Numbered from the stretch's first letter, positions 3,678 through 31,007 are shown. The stretch is DNA of 32,000 nucleotides from Candidatus Saccharimonadota bacterium (GCF_002214165.1 NZ_CP019964.1:420001-452000), one strand, 5' to 3'. Translations and numbers: made by a program. The notes: generated by a model not told the origin, from the sequence alone.

Positions 3678-4031
3678 TTATTTCCTATTATACCCAAACT
3701 TTTTATCATATTCATCATGATCTATTATATCAAGTATAAATGCAATTACAATTACTTCTGTTTGATCATCTGTAAGAGTATATAGCATACGCCAAAAATT
3801 AGATAGCTCAATGCGAAATAAATTTGTAATATCATATTTTATAGCATACTCTTTAGGTATAAGTTTCTTGGCTATAGGATCTCCATAATGGGGGTTTATT
3901 TTAATCAAATCTATTTTCTTTTTTATTGAATTAAGTATGCTTTTATCTATTTTGGAATTTTTTGCCAGTTTATTAAGTTCTTTATAAGCTGCCTCTGCTT
4001 CAGGAGAAAGAATAACCTTTATAGGTTTCAT
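3678..4031 (-). CDS. Putative type II toxin, RelE/ParE-superfamily-like
   Basis: 117 aa, small and basic. Second gene of a two-gene unit with an ATGA stop/start overlap (4028..4031). The core FRIELSNFWRMLYTL...VIVIAFILDIIDHDEY resembles the RelE/ParE beta-sheet core. Call by eye only. Confidence 0.5.
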   Translation of the reverse strand: MKPIKVILSPEAEAAYKELNKLAKNSKIDKSILNSIKKKIDLIKINPHYGDPIAKKLIPKEYAIKYDITNLFRIELSNFWRMLYTLTDDQTEVIVIAFILDIIDHDEYDKKFGYNRK

Positions 4032-4315
4032 AATTCAGGGCCATTTTTAATAGAATCCTGTAGTTTCTTATTCGAATTGTGTATCCATGTTATTCCTTTT
4101 ATCGTTACTAAAATCTTTCCACTTTCTTCAAGATATTCAAGGATAACCATAAGGGTTCTATGATTTACCTGTTTTGGCAGTAAACGCTTTATTTCTGGTA
4201 TTGTAATAATTGAATTTTCTGAGTTTTTTATAACGGATTCTACCATCAGAACTGTGTTTAATGTAGGAGAATGTGTTAATTTTTCCATTGTTTCATTTTC
4301 TGACATATTAATCAC
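4028..4315 (-). CDS. Putative antitoxin / small winged-helix DNA-binding protein
   Basis: 95 aa, first gene of the pair, translationally coupled to the toxin-like ORF. IPEIKRLLPKQVNHRTLMVILEYLEESGKI looks like an HTH plus wing. Confidence 0.5.
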   Translation of the reverse strand: MINMSENETMEKLTHSPTLNTVLMVESVIKNSENSIITIPEIKRLLPKQVNHRTLMVILEYLEESGKILVTIKGITWIHNSNKKLQDSIKNGPEL

Positions 4316-4558: not shown

Positions 4559-6475
4559 TCAACCAAAATTAGATTTTGTTATCTCCCCGTACTTTTTATT
4601 CCCTATTTTTTTCTTTAATTCCGACGCTGCCTGCTCTTCGAGATCCATCATTGAATAATCTGCGTTTTCATCCGCTGCATTGCTTATATCATCGAGCATT
4701 GAGATTAGCTCCTTCCTAAGGCCTATTAGCTTGCCTTTGCCCGTATCGCTAAAACCATTGTACAACTCCGCATCGGATATTAAGCCGGATCTAGCACTCA
4801 TCTCCCTGCCAAAGATGTATTCCGCATAATCAAATGCGGAGTTCCTTATGGCATTGAAGAAGATGTAAGCCTTTACCGAATCTATATACGTATTGATGAG
4901 CTCGCTTAAATCCTTAGACCTCTTGTAATTGCTATATGATGCCTTGGCACTTTCATAATGCTTGGCCATATTGCTCTTTGCTTCATTGTAAGCTGACCTA
5001 AATTTGGCGGAATTTCTTTCGTCCAATGCCTTGACGAATGCTTCCTTGAAACGCTTTATGCCATCGACCTTCGCATTGATGCTCCTGAATAGCAGCCAAT
5101 ATGAGGTATAAACATCTGAGGGTCCGGATAGTTTTATAAGATTCGGTAAGCCTTTATTAAATGCCTCTTCGATACTTCTGTCGTCATCCAAATACAATAT
5201 TGCAAATCTGCCTGATCTCCTAATCAAACCATTAGCTTCATTAAGGTATTCTATGTTCTTTATGCCCTTGTGGATCCATTTGAATGTTCTGGGGGCTGTA
5301 TTCATTATTTGGGCAAGCCTTCCATCATTGCCTTTCACCTTGATCACTCCTGTGCTGCCATCCATATATACCTCTTTTGAATTAAGCAGCTTGCCAAAAT
5401 CATTCACTCCTGTAATGTACGGTATTTTAAGCTCCCTTGCGAGTATGCTCACATGGGACAGCATCCCATCATACCTTGAGATTATGCCTGCCACATTCTT
5501 ATTATCCAAGTATTTGATATCGCCTAATTCCACTTCCTCCTTTATAATTATAACAGGGCTTTCGGGTATGTTCCTTATATCTTCCCACGGAATGCCTTTG
5601 CCTATCCCGGCAGATACAGGTATATCGCCCATATTATCCTCAAACTTAAGCTTAGGCAAATCGGATGTTATCGGCCTTGACTGCAGGATAAAAATATCGT
5701 TTCCTTTTATGCACCATTCAACATCTTGCGGGGAATTGAATATCCTGTATATCTTTATGGCTTCTTTTACAAGCTTGTGTATCTCGCTGCTGAGCAATTT
5801 CCTGGAATAGGAAACCTCCATAGGCAGCTTCCTATCGTGTCCTTTGACGTTGGCATACAACTGGAAATTCACGGTTATGCCTGGAGTTGATTTCTTTTTG
5901 GTTAAATCTATTTTATACAAGTCTCCAACTTCCTTTCCGGAGACAAACCTCTCTCCTTGGCCTATTATCGCATTTATTATTACAGCATCTTTGGTTACGA
6001 AAAGGACACCCGATTTCTCCGAGTCTATCTGCTTCTGTATCACTACTGCCATCTTTGGATGTTCGCTGCTGTATCCAAAATCTTTTATCCTGTAAAGGGA
6101 TGCGTAAACATCTTTTACGGATTTTGGCAAATTCCCTTTGGTTACGAAAAGATCCGTTTTGAACTTTCCTGCATAACTGTATTTTGATGAATCCTCCACC
6201 GTTGCCGAACTCCTGACTGCGACCTTTCCCTTCTTTATGTATTTAGAATATGATTCCATTACTTCATTAATTATTTCCTTTGGCAATTCTATATTTGTTT
6301 TAGATCTTTGGTTAGCTTTTATATAGGAATCAAATGCGTTTGCATTTAGTATAAAAAATTCCGGTACTCTTATGCCTTCTTTCTTAAGCTTTAGCAATGA
6401 GTATCCTTTTCCGCCAACAATATTGGGATTCAGGGCCCCTTCAGAAATTATGTATTGGCTTTTCATAGAGAACAT
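4559..6475 (-). CDS. PEP-utilising enzyme / pyruvate,water dikinase-like protein (PPDK_N ATP-grasp + phospho-His swivel domain + unknown helical C-terminal domain)
   Basis: N-terminus GGKGYSLLKLK...VAVRSSATVEDSSKYSYAGKF (PEP/pyruvate-binding ATP-grasp). Mid region VAGIISRYDGMLSHVSILARELKIPYITGV (mobile-domain phospho-His motif). The last ~250 aa are helical with no TIM-barrel motifs. A TATA-like tttatata sits just upstream, so the start may be Met4 (6466). Confidence 0.85.
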   Translation of the reverse strand: MFSMKSQYIISEGALNPNIVGGKGYSLLKLKKEGIRVPEFFILNANAFDSYIKANQRSKTNIELPKEIINEVMESYSKYIKKGKVAVRSSATVEDSSKYSYAGKFKTDLFVTKGNLPKSVKDVYASLYRIKDFGYSSEHPKMAVVIQKQIDSEKSGVLFVTKDAVIINAIIGQGERFVSGKEVGDLYKIDLTKKKSTPGITVNFQLYANVKGHDRKLPMEVSYSRKLLSSEIHKLVKEAIKIYRIFNSPQDVEWCIKGNDIFILQSRPITSDLPKLKFEDNMGDIPVSAGIGKGIPWEDIRNIPESPVIIIKEEVELGDIKYLDNKNVAGIISRYDGMLSHVSILARELKIPYITGVNDFGKLLNSKEVYMDGSTGVIKVKGNDGRLAQIMNTAPRTFKWIHKGIKNIEYLNEANGLIRRSGRFAILYLDDDRSIEEAFNKGLPNLIKLSGPSDVYTSYWLLFRSINAKVDGIKRFKEAFVKALDERNSAKFRSAYNEAKSNMAKHYESAKASYSNYKRSKDLSELINTYIDSVKAYIFFNAIRNSAFDYAEYIFGREMSARSGLISDAELYNGFSDTGKGKLIGLRKELISMLDDISNAADENADYSMMDLEEQAASELKKKIGNKKYGEITKSNFG

Positions 6476-6582: not shown

Positions 6583-6936
6583 ATGGGCAAGCTTAATGCC
6601 TCTGAAAATATAGACTACATCAAGCCTTTGAACAGTTATGCTGAACCAAATGAGGTTGGAGGAAAGGCCTATAACCTTATGAAACTTTCTCATGCTCATT
6701 ATAATACTGTAGTGGGATTTGCCATAACCACAGAAGTATATAGGTATTGGAAGAAAAACGGGAAATTGCCAAAAGAGTTCTTCGATAAACTTAATGAATA
6801 CCTGAAATGGTTCAGTTACGGTATGAAATTCCCTGTTATAGTAAGGAGTTCAGCTACAGTAGAAGATGCCAAAAAAGCAAGCTTTGCAGGATTATTCGCC
6901 TCCTATCCTAATGCAAACTCAATATTAGATAGGGTA
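6583..6936 (+). pseudogene. Truncated N-terminal fragment (~118 aa) of a PpsA-like paralogue
   Basis: EVGGKAYNLMKL...FPVIVRSSATVEDAKKASFAGLF parallels residues ~20-105 of the intact gene 4559..6475. Similarity stops near 6936. The remaining ORF tail to 7062 overlaps the fic 3' end and looks non-coding. Confidence 0.7.
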
Positions 6937-6961
6937 TTATTTACAGATTCAAATACAGCAA

Positions 6962-8143
6962 CTATTTATATTGTTCTTTATATATCTCCCTTATCCCTTT
7001 TGCAACAAACAGCTGATTCCTTGCCTTGCCTGTTTCTAATGGCTGTATTACACCTTCCTTGATAAGGTTATCAATAGCTCTTTTTGCAGTTGGATAGGTA
7101 ACATTTAGTATGTGTGATGTCGTATTTGCACTTATGATATAGGAAGCGAACAGCTGCTGAAAAAGTACATATGTTGACTTGCTGTACTTTTCTTCTATAT
7201 CCTTGCCTTTCTCATTATAATACTGGCTTAATTTGCTTATCTTGTCCAATACTATTTTAGATTGCGATATCGCTCCGATTAAAAAGAATTTTAGCCATTC
7301 TGAATAAGTTGAATTTTTGCTTATATCCCTGAGAAGCGAATAATATGCACTTCTGTTCTTCTCAAAGTAATCGCTCATATATAATAATGGGAGCTTTAAG
7401 GCCTTATTCTTTATCAGGTAAAGTATCAGCAAAAGCCTGCCTATCCTTCCATTGCCATCCAAAAATGGATGTATCGCTTCAAATTGGTAGTGCATAAGTG
7501 CAATTTTAACCAATATGGGATCATTGCTGCTATCCATATAATCAAGCATATTGGCAAGCAGCTCTTTTACCCTCTCTGGAGGTGGCGGTATGTAGGTTGC
7601 GTACTCTATGCCTATAGCGTTTTGATAATGCGAAATATAGTTCTGCACTTCCCTTATAGATCCTGGCTTTGCTTTCTCACCCCTGACATGCTGCAGCAGT
7701 ATTGAATGCAGTTTGGTTATCAGCTGCAAATCTATAGGTATTTGCTCGTTCATAAGGTTTATTCCTATTTCCTGGGCTTTTATATAATTCCTAACTTCCA
7801 ATATGTCATTCCTTTTCTCTTCGTCCAATATCTTTTGGCCTGCCTGCTCCTTGAACATGTCATCAAGGTTGCTCAAAGTGCCTTCTATCCTTGAGCTTTC
7901 AACAGCCTCGTTTTCAAGCTGCGGCCTTATGAACAGGTTTACATTATTGTGCAATACCTTATTTAGCTCAATTCCCGCACCATCCAATCTACCAAGCCAA
8001 GTGCTGGCCTCCGATAGTAATCTCAATAGTTCATTATCGTAATCTATCTTTACTGGAAGATTATCAGGTACGAATGTATAATATTGATTAGCACTATCGG
8101 GAAGAAGCTTGCCAGAAGGATTTTTAAATTCTTCAATATCCAT
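6962..8143 (-). CDS. Fic family protein (class II, N-terminal inhibitory helix, C-terminal wHTH-like domain)
   Basis: Canonical Fic motif HPFLDGNGRIGRLL. Upstream S-x-x-x-E-G inhibitory motif in VESSRIEGT. TAG stop. Confidence 0.9.
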   Translation of the reverse strand: MDIEEFKNPSGKLLPDSANQYYTFVPDNLPVKIDYDNELLRLLSEASTWLGRLDGAGIELNKVLHNNVNLFIRPQLENEAVESSRIEGTLSNLDDMFKEQAGQKILDEEKRNDILEVRNYIKAQEIGINLMNEQIPIDLQLITKLHSILLQHVRGEKAKPGSIREVQNYISHYQNAIGIEYATYIPPPPERVKELLANMLDYMDSSNDPILVKIALMHYQFEAIHPFLDGNGRIGRLLLILYLIKNKALKLPLLYMSDYFEKNRSAYYSLLRDISKNSTYSEWLKFFLIGAISQSKIVLDKISKLSQYYNEKGKDIEEKYSKSTYVLFQQLFASYIISANTTSHILNVTYPTAKRAIDNLIKEGVIQPLETGKARNQLFVAKGIREIYKEQYK

Positions 8144-8428: not shown

Positions 8429-8656
8429 ATGACAGAGGATACTGCAATTATAACAGTGAGAGTGCCTAAAAAAGTAAAAATTGCCATGAATAAAGCAAAC
8501 ATAAATATCAGTAAAGAGATTAGGGATTACTTAGAGGCAAAAACAAGGTCTCTTGAATTATATGCCTTACTTCCAGAAATCTCTAAAAGAGCAAAAAATA
8601 GGAAAGTGACACTAAATAGCACTAGAATAATAAGAAAATATCGTGATTCCAGATGA
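8429..8656 (+). CDS. vapB: VapB-type antitoxin (ribbon-helix-helix-like)
   Basis: 75 aa. N-terminal ITVRVPKKVKIAM is typical of an RHH beta-strand. ATGA overlap with the downstream PIN gene. Confidence 0.7.
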   Translation: MTEDTAIITVRVPKKVKIAMNKANINISKEIRDYLEAKTRSLELYALLPEISKRAKNRKVTLNSTRIIRKYRDSR

Positions 8657-9069
8657 TGGTATTGGATGCCTCTGCAATTGTAAAACTAATTATAAATGAA
8701 TCTGAATCTGATTTTGTAAGGAAAAAAGTTGTATCAGAAGCAAAGAAAAGTGAACCTATTTATACACCAGATATCGCTTTGGCCGAATCTTTAAATGTCA
8801 TATGGAAGTATTCCAGCTTAAAAAGCCAAAATAACATCAATCAATATAAATTATTATCAGATCTGATGCTCTTATGGAATACCTTAACCGTTGTAAATAC
8901 AGCTACATTAGCCTCTTTAGCTATGAAAATTGCGGTAGATAATAAAATAACAATTTATGATGCATTATACGCAGCATTGAGTAAATTGGAAAATGCTCCT
9001 TTATTAACTTTTGACAAATACCTTAAAAGCAAAGCAACTGATATAGAAATAAAAGTAGTTACAATATGA
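8653..9069 (+). CDS. vapC: PIN-domain ribonuclease toxin VapC
   Basis: 138 aa. N-terminal MVLDASAIVKLIINE (first acidic PIN residue), later acidic residues, and size and context match VapC. Confidence 0.8.
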   Translation: MMVLDASAIVKLIINESESDFVRKKVVSEAKKSEPIYTPDIALAESLNVIWKYSSLKSQNNINQYKLLSDLMLLWNTLTVVNTATLASLAMKIAVDNKITIYDALYAALSKLENAPLLTFDKYLKSKATDIEIKVVTI

Positions 9070-9101: not shown

Positions 9102-9440
9102 TTACAACTGAAATTCCAAACTTTTATAGTCCTCTATTAGCCATTTCCATATTGGGACTAACTTTATTTTCCTTTTTATGCTTGTTGTATCCTCTATATA
9201 TCATTTTATTATAATTAAATTTCCACAATTCTGCTCAATGCTGGCTTTTACCAATGAATTGGTTTCCCTTTCTTTAATCTCATCGATTGACGATGCATAA
9301 GTTACCTGTATCAATGAATTCGTTTTGTCCTATTTCCTTAATAAGAAATCTATCTCCATGTTTGGTGCACTCTTCCAATATATCCGAAACGATAACTGTA
9401 TCAGGCCTTTTCTTTAATATTTCTTATTATTACTAACTTT
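9102..9440 (-). pseudogene. Decayed C-terminal remnant of a DUF4143-type ATPase paralogue
   Basis: The minus-strand translation gives [72 protein letters not shown]. The intact-looking copy at 24229..24666 reads [66 protein letters not shown]. The remnant has TGA in place of Trp plus an upstream frameshift. Confidence 0.7.
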
Positions 9441-9503: not shown

Positions 9504-10292
9504 TTATTTTAAAAGCGCTAGCAGGTAGCTTTTGACTTCGTTGTAATCTGGCGGGTTCCTTACCAGCCTGGACATTTCAGAATCCCACACCTTTCCTACA
9601 ATCTCTATTTTCTCTTTCAATCTCTCTAATGAAAATTCTTCATTATCTGTCCTGCCATAAAGTTGCATCTTTTTGCCGACAAGTTCAAGATTTGGCTTGG
9701 TATCGTATTTCCTGCACAGTATCCACGAATCGTACATATCCCTAGCTACCGGCTCCGTTCTCTCCATCAATGCTTTTATCTTGTCCGCCAACAGCTCGTT
9801 AACATCGAGCGAATTGATTATATAGGAAGGTATATCAGAATATATAGGCATCCTTGGCATATGCTTAACATCCATCATAGGTCTTTCAAATAGATTCATA
9901 TCTAAACCCAATGTTTGCACTGATTGCGGATTATTGGATATTGCATATAAAGGGCCCTTTATTTTAATCGTGTATTTTAACATATTCTTGTATTTTTCAA
10001 CTTTGAAATTTGCGTTGTACTGTAAGTTAATGCCTTTTATTGCCCTATTTATTAATTTTTTGATAACCTCAACTTCAGTAGGATTTTGTAATATGAAATC
10101 AAGGTCCTCTGAAAACCTTCCAGAGCCATACAATTTGGATATTGCCGTTCCTCCTCTAAATATTATATTTGTTGACCTATTGAATATTTGATATAGCATA
10201 AGCTCCTGTAAATAGTCTTTTTCGGCATCTTGTGTTTTAGGGAATCCGAGCCTATCCGCATAGGCCCTCCATTCTTTTGTCTCGTCTATCAT
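9504..10292 (-). CDS. abiEii: AbiEii/AbiGii-family nucleotidyltransferase toxin (type IV TA / abortive infection)
   Basis: Motif FRGGTAISKLYGSGRFSEDLDF is characteristic of the AbiEii NTase family. It follows the AbiEi-like gene directly (1-nt gap). Confidence 0.88.
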   Translation of the reverse strand: MIDETKEWRAYADRLGFPKTQDAEKDYLQELMLYQIFNRSTNIIFRGGTAISKLYGSGRFSEDLDFILQNPTEVEVIKKLINRAIKGINLQYNANFKVEKYKNMLKYTIKIKGPLYAISNNPQSVQTLGLDMNLFERPMMDVKHMPRMPIYSDIPSYIINSLDVNELLADKIKALMERTEPVARDMYDSWILCRKYDTKPNLELVGKKMQLYGRTDNEEFSLERLKEKIEIVGKVWDSEMSRLVRNPPDYNEVKSYLLALLK

Positions 10293-10293
10293 A

Positions 10294-10911
10294 TTATGAC
10301 CTAAATTTGATTTCTTTTACTTCTTTTTCAATTTTATTTATCTTTTCTTTTAGGTCCTTTGAGCCTATCCTCTTTATATATGATGAAAGCCTGCCTTTTT
10401 CAAGGATCCTTGATTCTTTTGCGTTTTCGTATGCTTCTTCTATATACGGAATCGGTAAATTGCCTATCAAAATTGCATCTATGATCGCTTTCTCAACATA
10501 TGCCACGAATGTGCCATCCTCTTTTGAGCGGTAGAACCCGAACATAAGCCTTCTTGGTATTTTGGTAAATATTATATTGTAACCTCCTATGCTAATGCCA
10601 TTGCTATGCCTTGCATCTGTCAATATATCAATTGCCGACAGGTTCTGCGTCGTTATCCCATAGTACTTGAACGCAGACATCATGCTAACATATGAAGGGT
10701 ATATTATATTGGATGCCACTGCATAAGGATTAGCATCTTTAAGATAATACTTGCCTTTTTCAATTCTTGAAATCTCTCCTCTATTTAACAATCTTGACAG
10801 GTAAAGCGATGTATATTTGATATCTTTATTCACAATCATTGAAGCTTCCTTAGTACTAAAAACAGGGATATTTAATGACTTTATCTCCTTTATAAATTGT
10901 AATTGATTCAT
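10294..10911 (-). CDS. abiEi: AbiEi-family antitoxin / transcriptional regulator
   Basis: 205 aa with an N-terminal wHTH-like segment (FSTKEASMIV...SLYLSRLLNRGEISRIEKGKYYL). Position upstream of abiEii. Confidence 0.75.
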   Translation of the reverse strand: MNQLQFIKEIKSLNIPVFSTKEASMIVNKDIKYTSLYLSRLLNRGEISRIEKGKYYLKDANPYAVASNIIYPSYVSMMSAFKYYGITTQNLSAIDILTDARHSNGISIGGYNIIFTKIPRRLMFGFYRSKEDGTFVAYVEKAIIDAILIGNLPIPYIEEAYENAKESRILEKGRLSSYIKRIGSKDLKEKINKIEKEVKEIKFRS

Positions 10912-17220: not shown

Positions 17221-18441
17221 ATGATCGTCATGAAAACTGCATACAAATATCGTGCATATCCTTCAAAGGAACAGAAGGGAACTCTGAATAGACAGATGTA
17301 TCTTTCAAAGGAACTATACAACCTGCTTCTTGAAAAGTCAAAGTCATACTATAATGAGACAGGAAAAACCTTAACGGAATTCAGGATGAACGTTTGGATA
17401 ACCAAATTAAAGAAGGAAAAACCGGAATTTGCGGAAATCCATTCTCAGGTGCTTCAGAATATCTCAAAAAGGGTGTCAGATGCATACAAACATTTTTTCT
17501 TGAGGTGCAAGGAGAAGAAGCAAGGAAAGAAGGTAAAGGCGGGATTTCCAAGATACAAGAAGTTCGTATCATCTTTGACATATCCTCAAACCAATGGCTT
17601 CAAGATAGAGAAGAAGAAGGTTGAACTTTCAAAAATAGGGAGGATAAATTTCGTGAACCACAGAAATATTGAAGGAGGAATAAAAACATTAAATATAAAG
17701 AAGACAAAATCACAGGAATGGTACATCACGATTGCTGTTGAAAAGGAGGACAAGCCATTCATTTCAAACGGTAAACCGAAGGTTGGTATTGATTTAGGAA
17801 TAATGCAATATGCCGCGCTTTCGGAAAATACAATACTCCAAAACGCAAAGATAACAAAACACCAGAGGAAACATTCAAGAGTCCTTCAACAAAACATATC
17901 GAGGAAAGAGAAGGGATCATCCAACAGAAGAAAGGCAGTGACAAGATTTGCAAGATACTCAGAGCATATTTCAAGGATAAGATTGGATTGCATACACAAG
18001 CTTTCAAATGAATTGGTGAATTCTTATTCATTCATTGCATACGAAGATTTAGAGATAAACAATATGGTGAAGAACCACAGATACGCAAAATCGATAAGTG
18101 AATCTTCTTGGGGAAATTTCACACAATTGCTGCAATACAAGGCTGAAAGCGCTGGTTGCGTGGCAATGAAAGTGAATCCTCAATACACATCAATGACATG
18201 CAGCAAATGTGGCAATGTGCAAAGCATATCGATATCCCAAAGAACATTCGTCTGCGAAAAGTGCGGGATGTCAATGGACAGGGATGTGAATGCGGCACAG
18301 AATATACTAAAGAGAGCTTTGAACTCCATCAGTCCAACTACCGAAGGGCATTCGGGAAGTCAAGCCTGCAGAGACGACATAAGACCTTCCGCAAGGGGGG
18401 CAGTTGCCTATGAAGCAGGAACTATATGGGTGGCATCATGA
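17221..18441 (+). CDS. tnpB: TnpB (OrfB) RNA-guided endonuclease of IS200/IS605 family
   Basis: N-terminal YKYRAYPSKEQ. RuvC triad contexts VGIDLG, IAYEDL and DRDVNAAQNI. Zinc finger CSKCG...CEKCG. Confidence 0.93.
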   Translation: MIVMKTAYKYRAYPSKEQKGTLNRQMYLSKELYNLLLEKSKSYYNETGKTLTEFRMNVWITKLKKEKPEFAEIHSQVLQNISKRVSDAYKHFFLRCKEKKQGKKVKAGFPRYKKFVSSLTYPQTNGFKIEKKKVELSKIGRINFVNHRNIEGGIKTLNIKKTKSQEWYITIAVEKEDKPFISNGKPKVGIDLGIMQYAALSENTILQNAKITKHQRKHSRVLQQNISRKEKGSSNRRKAVTRFARYSEHISRIRLDCIHKLSNELVNSYSFIAYEDLEINNMVKNHRYAKSISESSWGNFTQLLQYKAESAGCVAMKVNPQYTSMTCSKCGNVQSISISQRTFVCEKCGMSMDRDVNAAQNILKRALNSISPTTEGHSGSQACRDDIRPSARGAVAYEAGTIWVAS

Positions 18442-23232: not shown

Positions 23233-23371
23233 TTATATTAATAGATGGAATTTTATAAAAAATTAACATTTAAAAATCAAGTATTCTAAATTAAACTTTA
23301 TTTTATATTTTGCAGTAAATAAAGGGATACAGGAAGCTTTATAATTAGGATTGCCAATTATATTGATAAGC

Positions 23372-24232
23372 ATGAAAATTTTGTCACTGCCCTCTTCAAT
23401 AGGGCTTGCTTCTAAAATTGCAAAAAATATAGGCTGTGGCGTGGCTGATTATAAATTGACAAGATTTCCGGACAATGAGATCTACACCAAGATAGATACG
23501 CCACTTGATGGAGAAGACGTTGTAGTTATCGGGAATACCAACACCGATTCCGATATAATGTCTTATTTATTCCTGCTTGATGCGGCAAAAGAGCAGAACC
23601 CGAAGAGATTAATTGCATTAATGCCATATTTTGGATACGCAAGGCAGCACAGGGTTTACAATAGAGGGTAGGCAATCGCGTCAAAGGTGATGGCACAGTC
23701 TATAGCGAACTCAGCGGACATGATGGCTGCGATAGAGCTCCATGATGAGCAGACTTTGAGCTATGTCTCCAAGCCCTTTGCAAACCTTAAGATAAAAAAC
23801 CCAATATATAATTTCTTCAAAGGCAAATCCATTGACTACGTAATATCCCCGGATGACGGCGGCTATTCCAGATCTCTTGACATGGCAAACCTTTTGGGGC
23901 GCAAGGCCTACTACATAGACAAAAAAAGGATGGATGCAAATACCGTGGAAATGAGACTGCCGGAAGTTGAATTCGAGGATAAGAACATACTTCTATTGGA
24001 TGACATGATATCAACAGGAAATACGATGGTTAGCGCTATAGACCTGATTTCGGACAAAGGAGCGGGCAGCATATACTGCTGTGCCATCCATGGGATATTT
24101 GCGGGAGAAAGCGATAGGAGGATAAAGGAAAAGGCGGACGGGCTTGTTGTCACAGATACGATACAGAGTGAGTACAGCAAGCTTTCAGTAGCCGAAGATG
24201 TAATTGCATACCTCAGGTCCATTGGCATTTAA
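23372..24232 (+). pseudogene. prs: Ribose-phosphate pyrophosphokinase (PRPP synthetase) interrupted by one in-frame TAG at 23669-23671
   Basis: Tracked ORFs 23351..23671 and 23687..24232 are in the same frame. Read-through gives PYFGYARQHRVYNRG*AIASKVMAQSIAN, with the stop where the family normally has Glu. Downstream motif ILLLDDMISTGNTM (PRPP loop). The likely start is ATG 23372. Confidence 0.85.
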
Positions 24233-25693
24233 GTGCTGAAATCAACGCTTTTGTGGTCCTCCGTAAGCCACTTCCATATAGGGACCAGCTTTATTTTTTT
24301 ACCTTTTATGCTTATCTTATCCTCTATATCCCAGGTTATTATTATTAAATTTTTACAATTCTGCTCGGTGCTTGCTTTTACCAAAGAATTGGTTTCCCTT
24401 TCCTTAATCTCATCAATTGATGAAGCATAAGTTACCTGTATCAAAGAATCTGTCTTGCCATCTTTTCTAAGCAAGAAATCAACTTCCAAATCTGAAGCAT
24501 CCTTCCAATAATACAATGAATAATTATTATTCCAATACTTGATTCTCCTCATCAATTCAACAGCGACTACATTTTCCATCAACCTTCCTTTGTCCTCCTT
24601 GCTCTTGAAATTTACAGCACATGCTATTCCAGTATCTGTAACATATAATTTCCTTGGCGCTTTCATGCTCTCTTTGAGCTTTGCTGAGAACCTTTCAATT
24701 CTGACATCATCCCACGATTAAATATCGTGGGCTTTCTGCTATGCATTTTGTAAATATAAGATAGGAATTTGAGATATAACTTACCCATTTGCTTATCGTG
24801 TTTGGTGTTTTCATGCCAACTATATTTTTTAGCTTGTTGTAAGTTATTTCATTTGAAAAGTTGGATAGAAGGTAATCTGAGAGCAATTTAAATTCGCTTG
24901 GATAACTGATTGAATATCTATGAGGGACATCTCTCTGAATTATATCTGAGTATAATTGCAATAGGTAATTGCTGCCTTCAACTAGAGCTAATGGAATGCC
25001 TCCTATCTGCATGTACTCCTGCAGGCTATCAATGATCTTTGAATGCCATTCACTCGTATATCTTTTCGTTTTTATATCAAATGATTTGTAATCTAGAAAT
25101 TCCTTAAAACTAAATGGGAATAATATAAAATCTATATGCCTGCCAACAAGATATGTAGCTAACTCTTTGTTCATTAGCCTTGCATTGCTGCCTGTTATTA
25201 TAACTTTTTTAGATATTGAGATTGAATTTACAAATCTCTCCCATCCTTATATGTTCTGTATTTCATCAAATATTATATTTTCAGTATTGCTATTCAATTA
25301 GTACATAGCTTCCAATACCTGATTTAGATCTTCAGCCTTTATGGAAATCCCAGGATCATCAAAATTTATATAAGAAAACTTACCTTCTGAGAATATCAAT
25401 TCCGCCAGTACCGACTTGCCGCACCTTCTTATCCCTGTTATTATCCCCACAATACCGTTTCCAAGTAAATTTTCATTTATCGACAGATAACTTTTTATTA
25501 TATGCCCTGAGAGCAGTTTATTAATTGATTCGTTCTGATCCGCAATAACTCTTACAATGATATCCTTAGGCACTATGATAATGTTATAGGTATAAATTTT
25601 TAATAATCTTTGTAGCGGCATTGCAAAGATTAGATAAAATATTTGTATTGACATTACTAAGATTGATAAGATTGTATGTATTATACCATACAT
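24229..25693 (-). pseudogene. AAA ATPase with DUF4143 C-terminal domain, disrupted (two in-frame TAA stops plus one frameshift)
   Basis: Walker A GIITGIRRCGKS. IIFDEIQNI*GWERFV has its stop at 25247-25249, and a further stop lies at 25298-25300. ...ITGSNARL...GRHIDFILFPFSFKEF. A frame change near 24706-24745 precedes RFSAKLKESMKAPRKLYVTDTGIA. The likely original start is ATG 25621. Confidence 0.8.
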
Positions 25694-25746
25694 TAATTTT
25701 ACTTCCGCCCGATACCTGCTATTAACACAAAAAATCGATTACCTGT

Positions 25747-26463
25747 CTACAGATGTTTTTCTTTTTTCTCTTTCCTCAATAAATTTTTTACTCCAAATTT
25801 CTTTTTATCTAATTTCCTGATAACGATTAGTTCTGGAAAGCGCCCCGTCATAAAACCTATCACTTCTTTCCTTAACTCCCCATTTATGGATTTGTAATAA
25901 TCGCTTGGCACAGGGAAACTTTCAATTTCTATAGTCAACTTGTTAGGGCTTATTCCATTATAGCTTAAATATTTGTTTACATCCTTGATTGTTTTCCGGA
26001 AAAATTCATAAGCAGGCACGTTATTGGGATTGACATTGCCTTTTCTTATAGTTGATGAAAGAAGATGCAATCTGATATGGGTATTTGATGCAAACAGCAA
26101 AGTATCAAATTGCCCATCATTTATAATCTTATCGTCTATCTTTTTTATCTTTACTTTGAATCCTTCGTATTCTGGAAATATGTACCAATATTCGTGCTTT
26201 TTCTTAGCCATGCTATATGGGGATATTACACCGTATTCGGCATTATGCTTATCTTGGAGTTTATATTCGAATCTATCAAATCCCAGCCCGAGATTATGCC
26301 TCAACAGATCAAATTTTTGGTTGTGTTTTGGCTTATAACTCATTTCAAAATTAATTAATTTATTGTTTTCAAAATCCATGGTAAGAATAAAATCCTTATT
26401 ATTTTCTCTTAATTCACTTATCTCTTTTTTGAATTTATCCTTAATAGTTTTGTATTTTTCCAT
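25747..26463 (-). CDS. Hypothetical protein (238 aa), no recognisable motif
   Basis: Long ORF starting 36 nt downstream of the 145-aa ORF on the same strand. Lys-rich N- and C-termini. Confidence 0.6.
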   Translation of the reverse strand: MEKYKTIKDKFKKEISELRENNKDFILTMDFENNKLINFEMSYKPKHNQKFDLLRHNLGLGFDRFEYKLQDKHNAEYGVISPYSMAKKKHEYWYIFPEYEGFKVKIKKIDDKIINDGQFDTLLFASNTHIRLHLLSSTIRKGNVNPNNVPAYEFFRKTIKDVNKYLSYNGISPNKLTIEIESFPVPSDYYKSINGELRKEVIGFMTGRFPELIVIRKLDKKKFGVKNLLRKEKKEKHL

Positions 26464-26499
26464 AAACCTAAACCTTTTCTTATTTTATATTTTCTAGAT

Positions 26500-26937
26500 T
26501 TAATTCTTTTTTTCATTTCCGGGGTAAATAAGCCAAGAGCTCTTGTCCATCTCAAAATATACCGCTTTCTCTGATAAGTACTTCCCTATATCGGCAATAA
26601 AAGATTCCAGCTTTTTGATCTTCTCGTTATCTTTTACCGCAACTGTGTACTTTATGTGGTTTGTATGGTCGACGCTCTTGCCATCCATCCAGTAACCCAA
26701 TATGAATCCTTTTTCTGCGGTATACCCTCCGAATTCTTTAAGAAGAAACATGTCTAATTTGTCTTCCACCACTCTGTCCTTGTCCGTCTCAATCTTGATT
26801 GATGGAAGATAGAATACTATGGGCTTTCCCAGGTATGTTTTTTGATAATTATTTTCGCTTATATATTTCCGGTCCTCTGTGTTGGCTCTGATTATCTTTG
26901 CTATTTCGGCATTTTTATTTTTGCTCTTTACTGTCAT
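26500..26937 (-). CDS. Hypothetical protein (145 aa), small alpha/beta-looking
   Basis: ATG start with a TATA-like tttttatatttt ~35 nt upstream. Contains FGGYTAEKGFILGYW. No family recognised. Confidence 0.6.
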   Translation of the reverse strand: MTVKSKNKNAEIAKIIRANTEDRKYISENNYQKTYLGKPIVFYLPSIKIETDKDRVVEDKLDMFLLKEFGGYTAEKGFILGYWMDGKSVDHTNHIKYTVAVKDNEKIKKLESFIADIGKYLSEKAVYFEMDKSSWLIYPGNEKKN

Positions 26938-27188
26938 TTTATTACCTTAGTCTCTATTTATTTACCAAAATATAAAAATGTAATTTTATTGCGGGTTTTT
27001 AAGGTTTTATAATTTTGGCAAATAGGACACAATGGCATTATATTTATCTGCAAATGTACAAATTTTTAGCTTATTTTGCGAAATACCTCTGGATTGATAT
27101 GCTCTGGATATAGGCAATGCACCAGCCAACAACAAGTGCCAAGAAGAACTATCGATAGTAAATAGAAAAAGATTAAGTTATCGGTTAA

Positions 27189-30100
27189 TCAGGGTGCTAC
27201 GAAATACTGCTCTTTCCTTAGTAAGCTTGTTTCTATATGCTCTGCAAACACATCATTTCCAAGCTTCTTGATGGAGATTGTTTTTTTGTTGAACCCCGCA
27301 TTGCCAATCACATCATTTACCCACTCCCTGTTTGATACACGCCCCGTATTGATTACCACAGGGACATTGAAGTGCTTTGCAAGATCCTTAATCATTTCTG
27401 GAAGTGCCTTTTGTACTTCTATCCCTGGATAGAATGAAGAGAGGAACTCAAGCGAATCTATGAAAAGCATGGGCTTTCCGTCAACCTCCGCCGCAAAGCA
27501 GTATGTCCTTCCTATTGGCTGAGGTACATCCTCAAGCTTCTCCTTCCAGTAGAAGTTCAGTATCAATGTCGCAGGATCCTTTACCCATCTAAAGTTTGCA
27601 TCGAAGTGGATTCCCGAATAATCACTTTCGTTCGGTGGGGCTGTGCAGTCTCCGCTGTACCTGCCCCCGAATATATCATCCAGTGACCTTTTCCAGCTCT
27701 TTATGGTGAGTACTCCTGCAGTTGGCAGGGATTTGTCAAGCTTTTCCGAATCCTCGGATATTGTATTGAGGTATAAACCGAACAGCATCCTTCTTCCAGG
27801 CGAGTCCACGATGAACATGTCAGGATCAGTCATGTATTGGTATATATTGCTCAGCGCCTCGTCCGCCTTCTTTATATATAATTCCATTTCCTCTTTTGGC
27901 ATCTCCGCCCCTTCCATTAACGACCTCCTCGCTTCCTCCAATGCATTTTCCTGATCGCCTATCTTCTCCCTGTAATATTTGGATGCCATTACACCTTCAA
28001 CGGCATTTAGGATCCTCCCGTATGAGTATAGGGCATCGCCTTTGTTCTCATCCGCAATGTTGTTAATGTCTTTTTCAATTTTTTTCAGGCCTTTTGCAAG
28101 GAATATTGCCTTTTGGAAATTGACACTTTCGGGGTTGTCATCAATATCAGATTTTCCGACAATATAGTCGATCCTGCTGCGTAGGCCTCTTCCAACGCTA
28201 TTTCTGAGGGACGCAAGTTCGGTTTGGATTTGCCCCAGTGCCTGTGGTACGTCAACCGCATTTTCAGGAAAAACCCCTTTTATGATGCTTATAGAATCGG
28301 AGATTATTTTACTGGTCTCTTCTCTTGTGAGCTCTTCAGTTTTCTTTTCCTGATGAAGATCATATGTCTTAATATACTGTTTGTTGAATTCTGGCAATAA
28401 GCTATCTATATGTTTGAATTCATCGATGTGCAGTTCACTCGGGTTGCTTCTTCTTTTCAATGACTCGACCAAAAATTCAGGGGTGAACATATTCTTGTTT
28501 TCCCAAACAAGTCTCAGAATCTTTATCCCTCCCCACCCTTCAACAGATTTTGGCAAACCCTTGAGGTTATTGAAATAGGAATTTGCCCCATTTACTATTA
28601 TATTGTCTATTTTCCCTTTTTCTCCTGAGAACAAGGTTTCAAAATCCTCTTTTGTTTTGATGAAATTGGATGCAATAGATAGGTACTCTACGGACCCTCC
28701 CGTCCTGCTGTAAAGTTTCACTATCCTGTCAAATTTTGCTTCGTCAATGCTGCCTAGATTACCATTTTCTATAGTTTCGAGGTTTTTTATTAGATTTGAC
28801 CATCCTAGCACTTCAGCTTTAAACCTATTGGGGTCTTTAGATGCGTTCTCAAATTTGATAAGCCTAATAATTGGATCTTCCAAGAAAGTAAGGCCTTTGT
28901 TAAGATTATGGTTATCCGAATAATATAGTATATTAGCTATTCCCGTTAAGATATCCATAAAATCGTTCATGGTATATGAATCCTTTAGCCATGAAAGAAA
29001 TACTTCATCAGTTAGCTCTTTGGCAGCCTTTGTCTTTCTTATCGCACGGAAGTATTCGAAGGAAGCATTATAGCCAACATACCTTGCAAAGTCCCTTACC
29101 CGTTCACTGGTGAGCTCCGCGACTGCCTTTGTCATACCTATCGCATAGAAGTATTGATAGGAAGAGTCTCCACCAATCGAATCTACAAAATTTGTTATTG
29201 TCTCGTTGATGACTTCACCGCTTGTGAGCTCAGCGACTGCCTTTGAGTCGGCCATTGCACGGAAGTAGCCATATACATTATTGTTGCCTAATGAAATTGC
29301 AAAGTCCCTTACTCTTTTGCTGGTGAGTTCCTTTACGGCTCTAGTCATGCCGATCGCATAGAAGTATCTATTTGAACCATAACTGCCTATGGATTTTATA
29401 AAATTTACCGTTCCTTCATTTACGACTTCACCGCTTGTGAGCTCCGCGACTGCCTCTGTGTACCCTATCGCATTGAAATATTCCGAAGCGGAAGTTCTTC
29501 CTATCAGATTGATGAAATCTGCTATCCTTTTGCCGATAACCTCTTTGCTGGTGAGCTCCTTGACGGCTTTGGTGCTTTCTATTGCACTGAAATATTTATC
29601 GATATTGCTTCCGAGAGACTTTGCAAAGTCTATTACTTCACCGCTTGTGAGCTCCTTGACGGCTTTCGTCTTTCCTACTGCTCCAAAATATTCATATCCA
29701 AAACTGTTATTGGACAGATTTATGAAATCTGCTATTCTCCTATTGGCAATTTCCTCACTGGTGAGCTCCGCGACTGCCTTGGTGCTGCCCACTGCATAGA
29801 AATATTTATCGACGTTTATGCCGATTAATTTTGCAAAATCAAAAACTCTTTTGCTAGTGAGCTCCTTTACGGCCTTGGTGGTCCCAACCGCATTGAAGTA
29901 TTCAAAATTGGAATAATTACCTATTAGATTTATGAAATCTGCAGTTTTCTTATTGGTGAACTCCTCGCTTGTGAGCTCCTTGACTGCCTTTGTATTTTCG
30001 ATTGCATAGAAGTATCCGTAGGAATTATTTACACCGATTGAATTTGCAAACTTCATTGTCCTTTCGCTGGTGAGCTCCTTGACGGCCTTGGTGCTCCATA

Positions 30101-30344
30101 TTGCATGGAAGTATCTATATCTAGTGTCTCTTTGGTCTAAAGACTCGACAAAGTCTAGAATCTCGGATAACCTCTTATCCGCTTCACTTGGATCAAAATT
30201 TTCCTTAAGGTAATCCGTAATCAGTTTAGCGGTATCGTTATCACTTAATCTGGATAAGCCGGCAATTTTTGCATTGGTATCATCTAATAATTGCCTTTCG
30301 GTAAAGCCATCATTTATTTTGGTTTTATTCTTGGGCATTTTCAT
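27189..30344 (-). CDS. Large (1051 aa) cytoplasmic tandem-repeat protein: 11 helical repeats + ~350-aa helical middle + ~250-aa C-terminal alpha/beta domain of unknown function
   Basis: No signal peptide or TM helix and no P-loop. Repeats have the core YFxAIxxTKAVKELTS. The C-terminal region contains FGGRYSGDCTAPPNESDYSGIHFDANFRW and GKPMLFIDSLEF. Confidence 0.8.
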   Translation of the reverse strand: MKMPKNKTKINDGFTERQLLDDTNAKIAGLSRLSDNDTAKLITDYLKENFDPSEADKRLSEILDFVESLDQRDTRYRYFHAIWSTKAVKELTSERTMKFANSIGVNNSYGYFYAIENTKAVKELTSEEFTNKKTADFINLIGNYSNFEYFNAVGTTKAVKELTSKRVFDFAKLIGINVDKYFYAVGSTKAVAELTSEEIANRRIADFINLSNNSFGYEYFGAVGKTKAVKELTSGEVIDFAKSLGSNIDKYFSAIESTKAVKELTSKEVIGKRIADFINLIGRTSASEYFNAIGYTEAVAELTSGEVVNEGTVNFIKSIGSYGSNRYFYAIGMTRAVKELTSKRVRDFAISLGNNNVYGYFRAMADSKAVAELTSGEVINETITNFVDSIGGDSSYQYFYAIGMTKAVAELTSERVRDFARYVGYNASFEYFRAIRKTKAAKELTDEVFLSWLKDSYTMNDFMDILTGIANILYYSDNHNLNKGLTFLEDPIIRLIKFENASKDPNRFKAEVLGWSNLIKNLETIENGNLGSIDEAKFDRIVKLYSRTGGSVEYLSIASNFIKTKEDFETLFSGEKGKIDNIIVNGANSYFNNLKGLPKSVEGWGGIKILRLVWENKNMFTPEFLVESLKRRSNPSELHIDEFKHIDSLLPEFNKQYIKTYDLHQEKKTEELTREETSKIISDSISIIKGVFPENAVDVPQALGQIQTELASLRNSVGRGLRSRIDYIVGKSDIDDNPESVNFQKAIFLAKGLKKIEKDINNIADENKGDALYSYGRILNAVEGVMASKYYREKIGDQENALEEARRSLMEGAEMPKEEMELYIKKADEALSNIYQYMTDPDMFIVDSPGRRMLFGLYLNTISEDSEKLDKSLPTAGVLTIKSWKRSLDDIFGGRYSGDCTAPPNESDYSGIHFDANFRWVKDPATLILNFYWKEKLEDVPQPIGRTYCFAAEVDGKPMLFIDSLEFLSSFYPGIEVQKALPEMIKDLAKHFNVPVVINTGRVSNREWVNDVIGNAGFNKKTISIKKLGNDVFAEHIETSLLRKEQYFVAP
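29004..30113 (-). repeat. In-frame tandem coding repeats (11 units of 32-33 or 38 aa)
   Basis: Repeat starts (YF) fall at residues 78, 111, 149, 181, 219, 251, 289, 327, 360, 398 and 431. At DNA level there are recurring gtgagctcc(t/g)(t/c)gac(g/t)gc blocks. Confidence 0.85.
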
Positions 30345-30494
30345 GCTTATAGCCTCTTTGCACCTTATCTTTTACCTCCAGCATTTGCCTGATGTTTCTG
30401 ATTGCCAATCATTATTTTAAGGGCCCTTGCAATGTTTATTATATAAACCGCTTTTAATATTTAAGACTTGCCACTATTTCCTCTGAAGTCGTTT

Positions 30495-31007
30495 TTAGCT
30501 CTCGCGAAAGCTTTCATTCCAATAAAATTCCAATAGCATCATCTTTTTGAACGCTCTCATCCCGTATCCGTACTTCTTTATTGCATCTTTTGTTGCGTCC
30601 TCGGATAGCTTTTCCATAATCCCTTTGTCTTTTTGGAGCATCTCGCTTATCTCGTTGTCTGAAAGCCTGTAATTCGACTTTATCCTCCTGACTCCGTTGT
30701 AGATGTTGTAGCCATCCCACGGGCTTTTAAAATCAATTCCCATGGCAAACCTCAAGTCCGTGTATCCTCCAAAGCCTCCTGATGCCAATCCCTTTTTTCT
30801 CATACCTAAGCTTATTCCCCCTTCCCAAAAGAAATCGACTTCCAGAAAGTAAGTTTTTATCTCTTCGGGATCCCTGTCCTTGAATACCTCTTTGTTTATT
30901 TCATCCAGCTTGCCACTTGCCAGATTGTCAAGCCATAATTTTATTTTTTTCTTTCTTATGGTATTTTTCCTTTTTTCCGCAGGTGTAAGCTTTGCCATAT
31001 GGATCAT
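30495..31007 (-). CDS. Hypothetical protein (170 aa)
   Basis: ORF co-oriented with and 150 nt upstream of the repeat-protein gene. Basic N-terminus, GGFGGYTDLRFAMGIDF segment. The start may be Met4 (30998). Confidence 0.55.
   Translation of the reverse strand: MIHMAKLTPAEKRKNTIRKKKIKLWLDNLASGKLDEINKEVFKDRDPEEIKTYFLEVDFFWEGGISLGMRKKGLASGGFGGYTDLRFAMGIDFKSPWDGYNIYNGVRRIKSNYRLSDNEISEMLQKDKGIMEKLSEDATKDAIKKYGYGMRAFKKMMLLEFYWNESFRES

Follow-up and report, generated by a model that had tools for sequence, protein, structure and literature searches.

A predicted helical-array protein with a GNAT-like C-terminal domain and its apparently unrelated neighbours in Candidatus Mancarchaeum acidiphilum

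Introduction

We analysed a 32,000-nucleotide stretch of NZ_CP019964.1 (420001-452000; hereafter the window, with all positions counted from its first letter), in which four genes on the minus strand between 25,747 and 31,007 had been put forward as an undescribed and possibly defence-related system centred on a 1051-amino-acid (aa) repeat protein. That proposal came from an earlier note made by reading the sequence alone. The 1051-aa open reading frame (ORF) is 100% identical to Mia14_0486, a hypothetical protein of Candidatus Mancarchaeum acidiphilum Mia14, which is a DPANN archaeon (Micrarchaeota) with a 952-kb genome that lives as an obligate episymbiont of Cuniculiplasma (PMC5498576). We found that Mia14_0486 belongs to a small, Micrarchaeota-restricted family built of an N-terminal cap, an array of variable length, a helical linker of ~400 aa and a C-terminal GNAT-fold domain, and that the four genes very likely form no conserved four-gene system.

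Gene content of the locus

The four minus-strand ORFs, of 170, 1051, 145 and 238 aa, are Mia14_0487, Mia14_0486, Mia14_0485 and Mia14_0484, respectively, and are separated by gaps of 150, 251 and 36 nucleotides (nt); lengths, coordinates and gaps were all as the earlier note had given them. Mia14_0487 (30495..31007, minus strand) encodes an ORFan protein with a basic N-terminus and has a native-like guanine-plus-cytosine (GC) content of 0.40-0.41. The large gene, Mia14_0486 (27189..30344, minus strand), encodes the solenoid-array/GNAT-like protein and is the sole conserved element of the cluster, with homologues only in Ca. Micrarchaeota. Mia14_0485 (26500..26937, minus strand; GC 0.30-0.35) and Mia14_0484 (25747..26463, minus strand; GC 0.30-0.34) are ORFans in a low-GC block, and the protein encoded by the latter is very basic, with a net charge of +15. 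At the local base composition, ORFs of at least 238, 145 and 170 aa arose by chance in 0/2000, 1/2000 and 1/2000 shuffles, and the three small ORFs are probably real genes. Compared with a sister strain (run SRR15116022) each of them shows only 1-3 differences, which does not suffice to test for selection.

None of the four proteins reached any family threshold in profile searches against Pfam, NCBIfam, PADLOC and PHROG, so the earlier description of them as belonging to no recognisable family is sustained for sequence profiles; it does not extend to fold, where the C-terminal domain of the large protein is GNAT-like. No hydrophobic segment compatible with a signal peptide or a transmembrane helix was present in any of the four (maximum Kyte-Doolittle 19-residue mean 0.98), which agrees with the earlier rejection of a secreted polymorphic toxin on the same grounds. 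The FGGYT pentapeptide common to the 170- and 145-aa proteins had been flagged as a possible coincidence, and we found no other similarity between the two; by our own estimate, chance would yield ~0.5 shared pentapeptides across all the protein pairs that were compared. The locus tags Mia14_0484-0487 were not mentioned in the literature searched, and Rfam and tRNA scans of the window gave no match.

An array of helical repeats

Mia14_0486 begins with ~77 aa ahead of the array (30114..30344, minus strand) that an AlphaFold2 model of aa 1-475 predicts to be a helical cap, partly at low confidence: helices span residues 16-30, 35-49 and 52-67, and residues 1-36 have a predicted local distance difference test (pLDDT) score of <50. 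By sequence reading, a similar segment precedes the array in the relatives P0010, P0005 and P0011. The array itself covers aa 78-463 (28956..30113, minus strand) and comprises 11 three-helix units, each 32/33 or 38 aa long, anchored on 'YFxAIxxTKAVKELTS'. Across the family the repeat follows the consensus LTDERVL(+3 or +5)xFAKSIGxxAAxxYFxAIGxTKAVxE, and the variable positions of this consensus cluster between helices. As DNA, the Mia14 units are 66-72% identical, with a super-period of ~210 nt, and third-codon-position identity is 0.55 where their amino acids are identical. The Mia14 array is therefore old and maintained at the protein level, because its units have diverged as DNA and agree so little at third positions.

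The array was modelled as an all-alpha solenoid of three helices per unit (pLDDT 68.8). Its top PDB matches in Foldseek were generic solenoids, namely a designed ARM protein (4rv1, probability 0.99), designed and natural PPR proteins, karyopherins and beta-catenin, with template modelling scores (TM-scores) of 0.17-0.37, values low enough that the geometry of the solenoid superhelix is not matched. Tandem helical units that stack as a solenoid are thus common to the array and to ARM, HEAT and PPR proteins, but the unit in the Mia14 family is 33, 36 or 38 aa long and has its own consensus, TM-scores are low, and no Pfam repeat model matched. A TALE-like DNA-binding array was suggested by the ~33-aa unit and by the start of the first helix, where 'LTxExVxxxAxxxG' is, in our own reading, superficially like the TALE 'LTPEQVVAIASxxG'. 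This candidate was rejected on the three helices per unit in the model, as against two in TALE or BurrH repeats that wrap DNA, on the absence of any TALE from the top 50 Foldseek matches and on the neutral charge of the array (net +1). The 33-38-aa helical repeat is a previously undescribed type.

The number of units differs between close relatives. Three other lineages have alleles for which unit number is the sole difference, the N-terminal 60 aa and the C-terminal 450 aa being 100% identical: 4/5/6/9, 7/9/11/13 and 4/6 units occur in the clusters of P0005, P0002 and P0012, respectively, all from Micrarchaeota metagenome assemblies. These differences reflect either true copy-number polymorphism or collapse during short-read assembly. 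Between Mia14 and the sister strain there is no length difference across the first 775 aa of the large protein.

A C-terminal domain with a predicted GNAT fold

The array is followed by a middle region (aa 464-870; 27735..28955, minus strand) that is conserved in family alignments and mostly helical in the AlphaFold2 model, its first ~90 residues being at pLDDT <50. The remainder of the protein (aa 871-1051; 27192..27734, minus strand) is an acyltransferase-like domain which, on the evidence of the AlphaFold2 model and of Foldseek, very probably has the GNAT fold. In the model of aa 460-1051 (pLDDT 70.5) the final 180 residues score mostly 75-92, and the order of strands (b) and helices (a), b1-a1-a2-b2-b3-b4-a3-b5-a4-b6-b7, is the canonical GNAT topology. 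Foldseek against the PDB returned NatD/Naa40 as the top match (probability 0.99-1.00, TM-score to target 0.51), with further matches to Naa50, PatZ, HAT1 and p300, and against BFVD, a viral library, the top match was an N-acetyltransferase (probability 0.95), with several phage and giant-virus GNATs also listed. The solved GNAT N-acetyltransferases NatD/Naa40 (4u9w, 7kd7), Naa50 (7oju) and PatZ (9isq) share the fold and the strand and helix order of the Mia14_0486 domain, including b4 with the loop and the long a3 helix that come after it. An N...GF element on a4 of the domain may correspond to motif B of these enzymes. Unlike these enzymes, the Mia14_0486 domain has no significant Pfam or NCBIfam match, a degenerate motif A and a nearly invariant Cys, and it ends an 870-aa helical protein. 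The layout that the earlier note had read from the sequence, a repeat array, a helical middle and a compact C-terminal domain, was confirmed, and its description of a binding-type array coupled to an effector-like domain holds.

This domain is the most conserved part of Mia14_0486. At a cut-off of >=90% over 21 diverse members, the conserved residues were Cys900 (FGGRYSGDCTAPP), a Gly on b3, a Pro, and Asp963 and Glu966 on b4 (KPxxFIDSLEF), where the D-S-x-E element sits. Cys900 (codon 27645..27647, minus strand) is the most conserved residue of the domain family and lies in the a1-a2 region. Most members also conserve a motif-B-like pattern, [SG]-N-x3-[VL]-x3-[IV]-x3-4-G-[FY], the spacing of which differs by one from that of classical motif B (N..A...Y.k.GF type, on helix a4). 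One distant member, P0034, links the family to named GNAT proteins: its E-value with the family profile is 2e-6 for a search of 1.84 billion proteins, it clears the Pfam PF00583 threshold over the homologous region (21.9 bits vs a cutoff of 20.7; E = 3e-5) and it is named GNAT family N-acetyltransferase at NCBI. No member but P0034 reached a curated GNAT model through the C-terminal domain. A distant metagenomic member of 1307 aa, P0027, has two GNAT-type domains: besides the Cys-GNAT-like domain at the C-terminus, there is a canonical GNAT towards the N-terminus (Pfam Acetyltransf_1, residues 147-252).

Family size, distribution and divergence

Relatives of the large protein were sought in two word-indexed searches, with HMMER among 1.84 billion representative proteins, and in 185,579 species genomes. 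The word-indexed search missed clear homologues (P0010-P0012; P0001-P0004), so its negatives are no evidence of absence, and the array alignment was too variable to serve in scans. Only 27 of the 1.84 billion representative proteins matched at E <= 1e-3. All genome matches fell in Ca. Micrarchaeota, across ~10 lineages, and one metagenome-assembled genome (MAG) holds two paralogues. Distant members share just the C-terminal domain and, where named, come from other DPANN archaea (Diapherotrites, Undinarchaeales). No relatives were found in viral contigs or in Joint Genome Institute (JGI) metagenome contigs.

Five relatives, P0005-P0009, match only the array by BLAST and hidden Markov model. An array with interchangeable C-terminal effectors was therefore a candidate, dropped after hhalign assigned the C-terminus of P0009 to the family of the GNAT-like domain (probability 77%, E = 2e-5); P0007 and P0005/6 fell in register with the Cys aligned, though without significance. 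The simplest reading of these sequences is one old, diverged Micrarchaeota architecture of array, linker and Cys-bearing GNAT-like domain, which among P0005-P0009 is proven only for P0009. More diverged full-length members, such as P0023, carry degenerate arrays.

Compared with the sister strain, the large gene has a ratio of nonsynonymous to synonymous substitution rates (dN/dS) of ~0.13 from 27 differences, which indicates that it is under purifying selection. At the nucleotide level it is 1.2% diverged between the strains, vs 0.2-0.5% for its neighbours (L016 9942-12266 vs window 28020-30344).

The four genes as a unit

The earlier note had proposed conservation of the four-gene neighbourhood as a check and had named a failure to co-occur elsewhere as a refutation, and the outcome went against a four-gene system. 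We compared 14 related loci from ~10 lineages (L001-L008 and L010-L015) and found that the neighbours of the large gene differ in every independent lineage (L001, L002, L006-L008, L010-L015); examples are a PIN gene and a ParE pair by housekeeping genes, a major facilitator superfamily (MFS) transporter with an aldehyde dehydrogenase, and glycosyltransferases with a DUF87 ATPase. An all-versus-all comparison of 125 ORFs lying <=4 kb from the large gene revealed common neighbours only in recently diverged pairs (L001~L013 and L006~L010), and an MFS gene ~2 kb from the large gene recurs in three loci. Searched by tblastn against the 14 loci, the three small proteins gave nothing better than E = 2. 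The sister strain keeps the order of the four genes, but this synteny is uninformative because the strains are 99.6-99.8% identical.

Base composition also splits the cluster. The DUF4143 ATPase fragments next to the cluster and the 238- and 145-aa genes (24.2-27.2 kb) have a GC content of 30-35%, whereas values of 39-47% were obtained for the large gene and the 170-aa gene and also for the CMD/NifU and PRPP-synthase genes in the flanks. Oligo-T tracts serve as terminators in archaea, and by sequence reading a T5 tract (27166..27170, minus strand), located 19-23 nt past the large gene's stop codon, is a candidate of this kind. A TATA-like box had been reported ahead of the 145- and 238-aa genes, which lie 36 nt apart; it is present as TTTATA (26971..26976, minus strand), 39 nt upstream of the ATG of the 145-aa gene, as a match to consensus only. 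Together, the T5 tract and the TATA-like box suggest separate transcription units in the cluster, in keeping with the earlier caution that the clustering of the four genes does not prove an operon.

In PADLOC-DB 2.0 the sole match was a spurious one of the repeat region to RT_III-A (E = 5e-4), and ten family members gave zero matches. With genes that do not co-occur elsewhere, a GC boundary inside the cluster and no PADLOC match, the claim of a four-gene, possibly defence-related system fails, and the four genes very likely represent no conserved four-gene system. Two other kinds of known system were also considered and set aside. In a GNAT-toxin type II toxin-antitoxin (TA) system of the TacT/AtaT/KacT kind, a small single-domain GNAT toxin lies beside an RHH or DUF1778 antitoxin. 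This was rejected, as the GNAT-like domain here forms the end of a protein of 1051 aa and the neighbours match no antitoxin family and are not conserved. A polymorphic toxin system, with its secretion or trafficking domain, variable C-terminal toxin and downstream immunity gene, was rejected too, given the lack of a signal peptide or transmembrane helix, a C-terminal domain that is the most conserved part of the protein and the lack of a conserved downstream gene.

The low-GC segment and other genes in the window

The small proteins appear confined to this species: clustered at 90% identity, each groups with 1-3 sequences in total, every one of which comes from M. acidiphilum if its source is given, and none of the three had a significant match in PDB sequences, phage records, plasmids, viral contigs or JGI metagenome contigs. 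Two of their genes share the low-GC block (24200-27200; 30-35% vs 39-47% in the flanks) with a frameshifted AAA_14/DUF4143 ATPase pseudogene (24229..25693, minus strand; GC 0.30-0.36), recognised from Pfam families on its fragments. This gene is broken into three ORFs, and its match to an intact homologue in tblastn is split between frames -2 and -3, so it is dead, as the earlier note had said; it is fragmented in the sister strain too. The composition of the block suggests a separately acquired, decaying segment, and no direct repeats that would mark insertion boundaries were found around it. A second DUF4143-like fragment lies at 9132-9380, near a PIN gene. In locus L003 (5654-12133; also in L004 and L005), the array protein P0008 directly follows a group made up of an N6_N4 methyltransferase and MjaV restriction pair, an intact AAA_14/DUF4143 ATPase and an MJ1491-like gene, which echoes the dead DUF4143 gene beside the Mia14 cluster.

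The window had been described as otherwise full of TA and abortive-infection (Abi) modules. We detected a ParE toxin with an upstream small ORF, Fic/DOC, PIN, an AbiEii/AbiEi pair and an intact TnpB (IS605 OrfB), at 3678-4315, 6962-8143, 8653-9069, 9504-10911 and 17221-18441, interspersed with housekeeping genes (PPDK-like, queuosine salvage, S41 peptidase and glycosyltransferase). The ParE, Fic, PIN and AbiEii/AbiEi genes are real, but the TA and Abi genes lie >=15 kb from the four-gene cluster (7-22 kb when TnpB is counted with them), with housekeeping genes between. Among the other genes, ribose-phosphate pyrophosphokinase (PRPP synthase; 23351-24232, plus strand) has an in-frame TAG at ~23669-23671 (...YNRG*AIASKV...), and its two parts are called as separate genes (Pribosyltran_N and Pribosyltran). 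Loss of function as a pseudogene, an error in sequencing or read-through of the stop codon could each account for this. A 159-aa PPDK_N ORF (6583-7062, plus strand) adjoins a 638-aa protein with PPDK_N and PEP-utilizers domains (4559-6475, minus strand) on the opposite strand and may be a duplicated gene fragment.

Interpretation of the locus

The locus is best explained, with a modest degree of confidence, as a chance juxtaposition of three parts: Mia14_0486, a conserved stand-alone gene for a putative array-guided acyltransferase; upstream of it the species-specific ORFan Mia14_0487; and a decaying low-GC segment, apparently acquired separately, with Mia14_0485, Mia14_0484 and the frameshifted DUF4143 ATPase. 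In the mechanism that we propose for Mia14_0486, the cytoplasmic solenoid would bind a macromolecular partner, and since the array is charge-neutral this partner would be a protein or peptide rather than a nucleic acid in the likelier case. Binding would bring the partner to the GNAT-like domain, which would transfer an acyl group onto it, most simply acetyl from acetyl-CoA, and a change in repeat number would retune partner binding. In the eukaryotic NatA and NatB complexes, a helical-repeat auxiliary subunit such as Naa15 wraps the GNAT catalytic subunit, and by analogy the same logic of an alpha-solenoid positioning a GNAT module on its substrate may apply here. Unlike NatA and NatB, Mia14_0486 is one polypeptide with a new 33-38-aa repeat that is not TPR, and it has no known link to the ribosome.

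That Mia14_0486 is an active array-guided acyltransferase, an activity that we infer together with its acyl donor and target, is the reading that we prefer over its rivals but a tentative one, possible but short of probable, and several results weigh against it or against the wider picture of the locus. Motif A (Q/R-x-x-G-x-G/A) is degenerate in most Micrarchaeota members, as [FL]-x-x-G-x-[EGSNA], and distant members have nothing comparable to this acetyl-CoA motif; the domain could therefore use another donor or be inactive. No curated GNAT profile in Pfam or NCBIfam matches Mia14_0486 or its close relatives, the family profile gave no significant match to a solved GNAT among PDB sequences, and a comparison by hhalign with the canonical GNAT encoded in the window was likewise insignificant. 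Both AlphaFold2 models are of medium confidence (pLDDT 70.5 and 68.8) and were built from shallow alignments (6 and 8 sequences), and the Cys900 motif is modelled at pLDDT <50, in a loop at residues 434-458 of the C-terminal model. The differences in repeat number come from short-read metagenome assemblies, in which collapse artefacts are possible, and the ORFan status of the small proteins is provisional, being based on curated families, the 14 related loci, PDB sequences, phage records, plasmids, viral contigs and JGI metagenome contigs.

The same degenerate motif A, which is not conserved in distant members, would fit a non-catalytic scaffold: the protein would act purely as a helical adaptor, with a pseudo-enzyme or a module for ligand binding as its GNAT-like domain. 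No curated GNAT profile being reached, and a protein made up mostly of helical repeat or linker, would fit it as well. We consider this explanation unlikely: Cys, G, P, D and E are strongly conserved across DPANN members that are only ~20% identical, and the motif-B-like element is kept, a pattern typical of a maintained active or ligand site.

Defence by this single gene is similarly doubtful. A DSR2-like protein would sense a viral protein through the array and free the GNAT-like domain as a toxic effector, leading to abortive infection; such an effector might, with no greater likelihood, act by acetylating aminoacyl-tRNA as the TacT and AtaT toxins do. DSR2-type sensors have the same layout, an enzymatic domain with a long helical-repeat region, and variable neighbourhoods, and DSR2 is among the weak structural matches of the solenoid (probability 0.30), but the effector of Mia14_0486 is GNAT-like and not SIR2, and no family member matches a PADLOC model. 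The family is lineage-restricted and found at variable locations, often near TA, restriction-modification or DUF4143 genes, although TA genes are very common in these genomes and their proximity is not shown to be an enrichment. Repeat number is apparently polymorphic, one MAG has two paralogues, and the gene diverges faster than its neighbours between the sister strains (1.2% vs 0.2-0.5%); against this, a dN/dS of 0.13 is ordinary purifying selection, no relative occurs on viral contigs and the acetyl-CoA motif is degenerate at best.

It is also improbable, to much the same degree, that the protein is a host-directed effector, passed to the Thermoplasmatales host via cell-cell contact, where the array would bind and the GNAT-like domain modify a host protein. 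Several observations would suit such a role: this archaeon lives as an obligate episymbiont on Cuniculiplasma (PMC5498576), all named members of the domain family come from DPANN lineages, the array is apparently polymorphic, and the structural matches are led by acetyltransferases that act on protein N-termini or on lysines. However, the protein has no signal peptide, transmembrane segment or known translocation signal, no locus shows linkage to pilus or secretion genes, and the argument is entirely inferential.

Least credible is one undescribed, probably anti-virus system of all four genes, in which the array protein senses and its partners regulate or execute: the genes are co-oriented and contiguous, none of the four matches a curated family, the order is the same in the sister strain, and TA and Abi genes share the window and a DUF4143 ATPase adjoins, yet this reading is already largely refuted by the lack of co-occurrence in other lineages that carry the large gene, and it is further opposed by the near-identity of the sister strain, the two GC blocks that the cluster straddles, the 150- and 251-nt gaps with their T5 tract and separate TATA-like box, the missing PADLOC match and the distance of the TA and Abi genes.

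Implications for DPANN archaea

DPANN archaea such as Mancarchaeum live attached to their hosts, and most of their lineage-specific proteins are unread. At this locus a false lead is removed, as there is no four-gene system, and what takes its place is a chance juxtaposition, on the reading that we favour, around one conserved gene. The family of that gene joins an undescribed 33-38-aa helical repeat, apparently variable in copy number, to a divergent GNAT-fold domain with a nearly invariant cysteine that is found across several DPANN phyla. If the domain is not active, Mia14_0486 would be an ordinary lineage-specific hypothetical protein. If it is an active array-targeted acyltransferase, the family would offer a candidate way for these symbionts to modify a specific partner protein of their own, of their hosts or of viruses.

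A broader and more speculative reading, to which we give little weight, is that the proteins with a solenoid array and a Cys-GNAT-like domain are DPANN-specific, rapidly retunable recognition-plus-modification proteins. Switching of repeat number would then pick a foreign or host target, the invariant Cys would be used for covalent modification, and the outcome would be single-gene antiviral immunity or manipulation of the Thermoplasmatales host. Were this reading true, DPANN archaea would have an interaction mechanism of their own that draws on a new class of helical repeat together with a new subfamily of GNAT domains.

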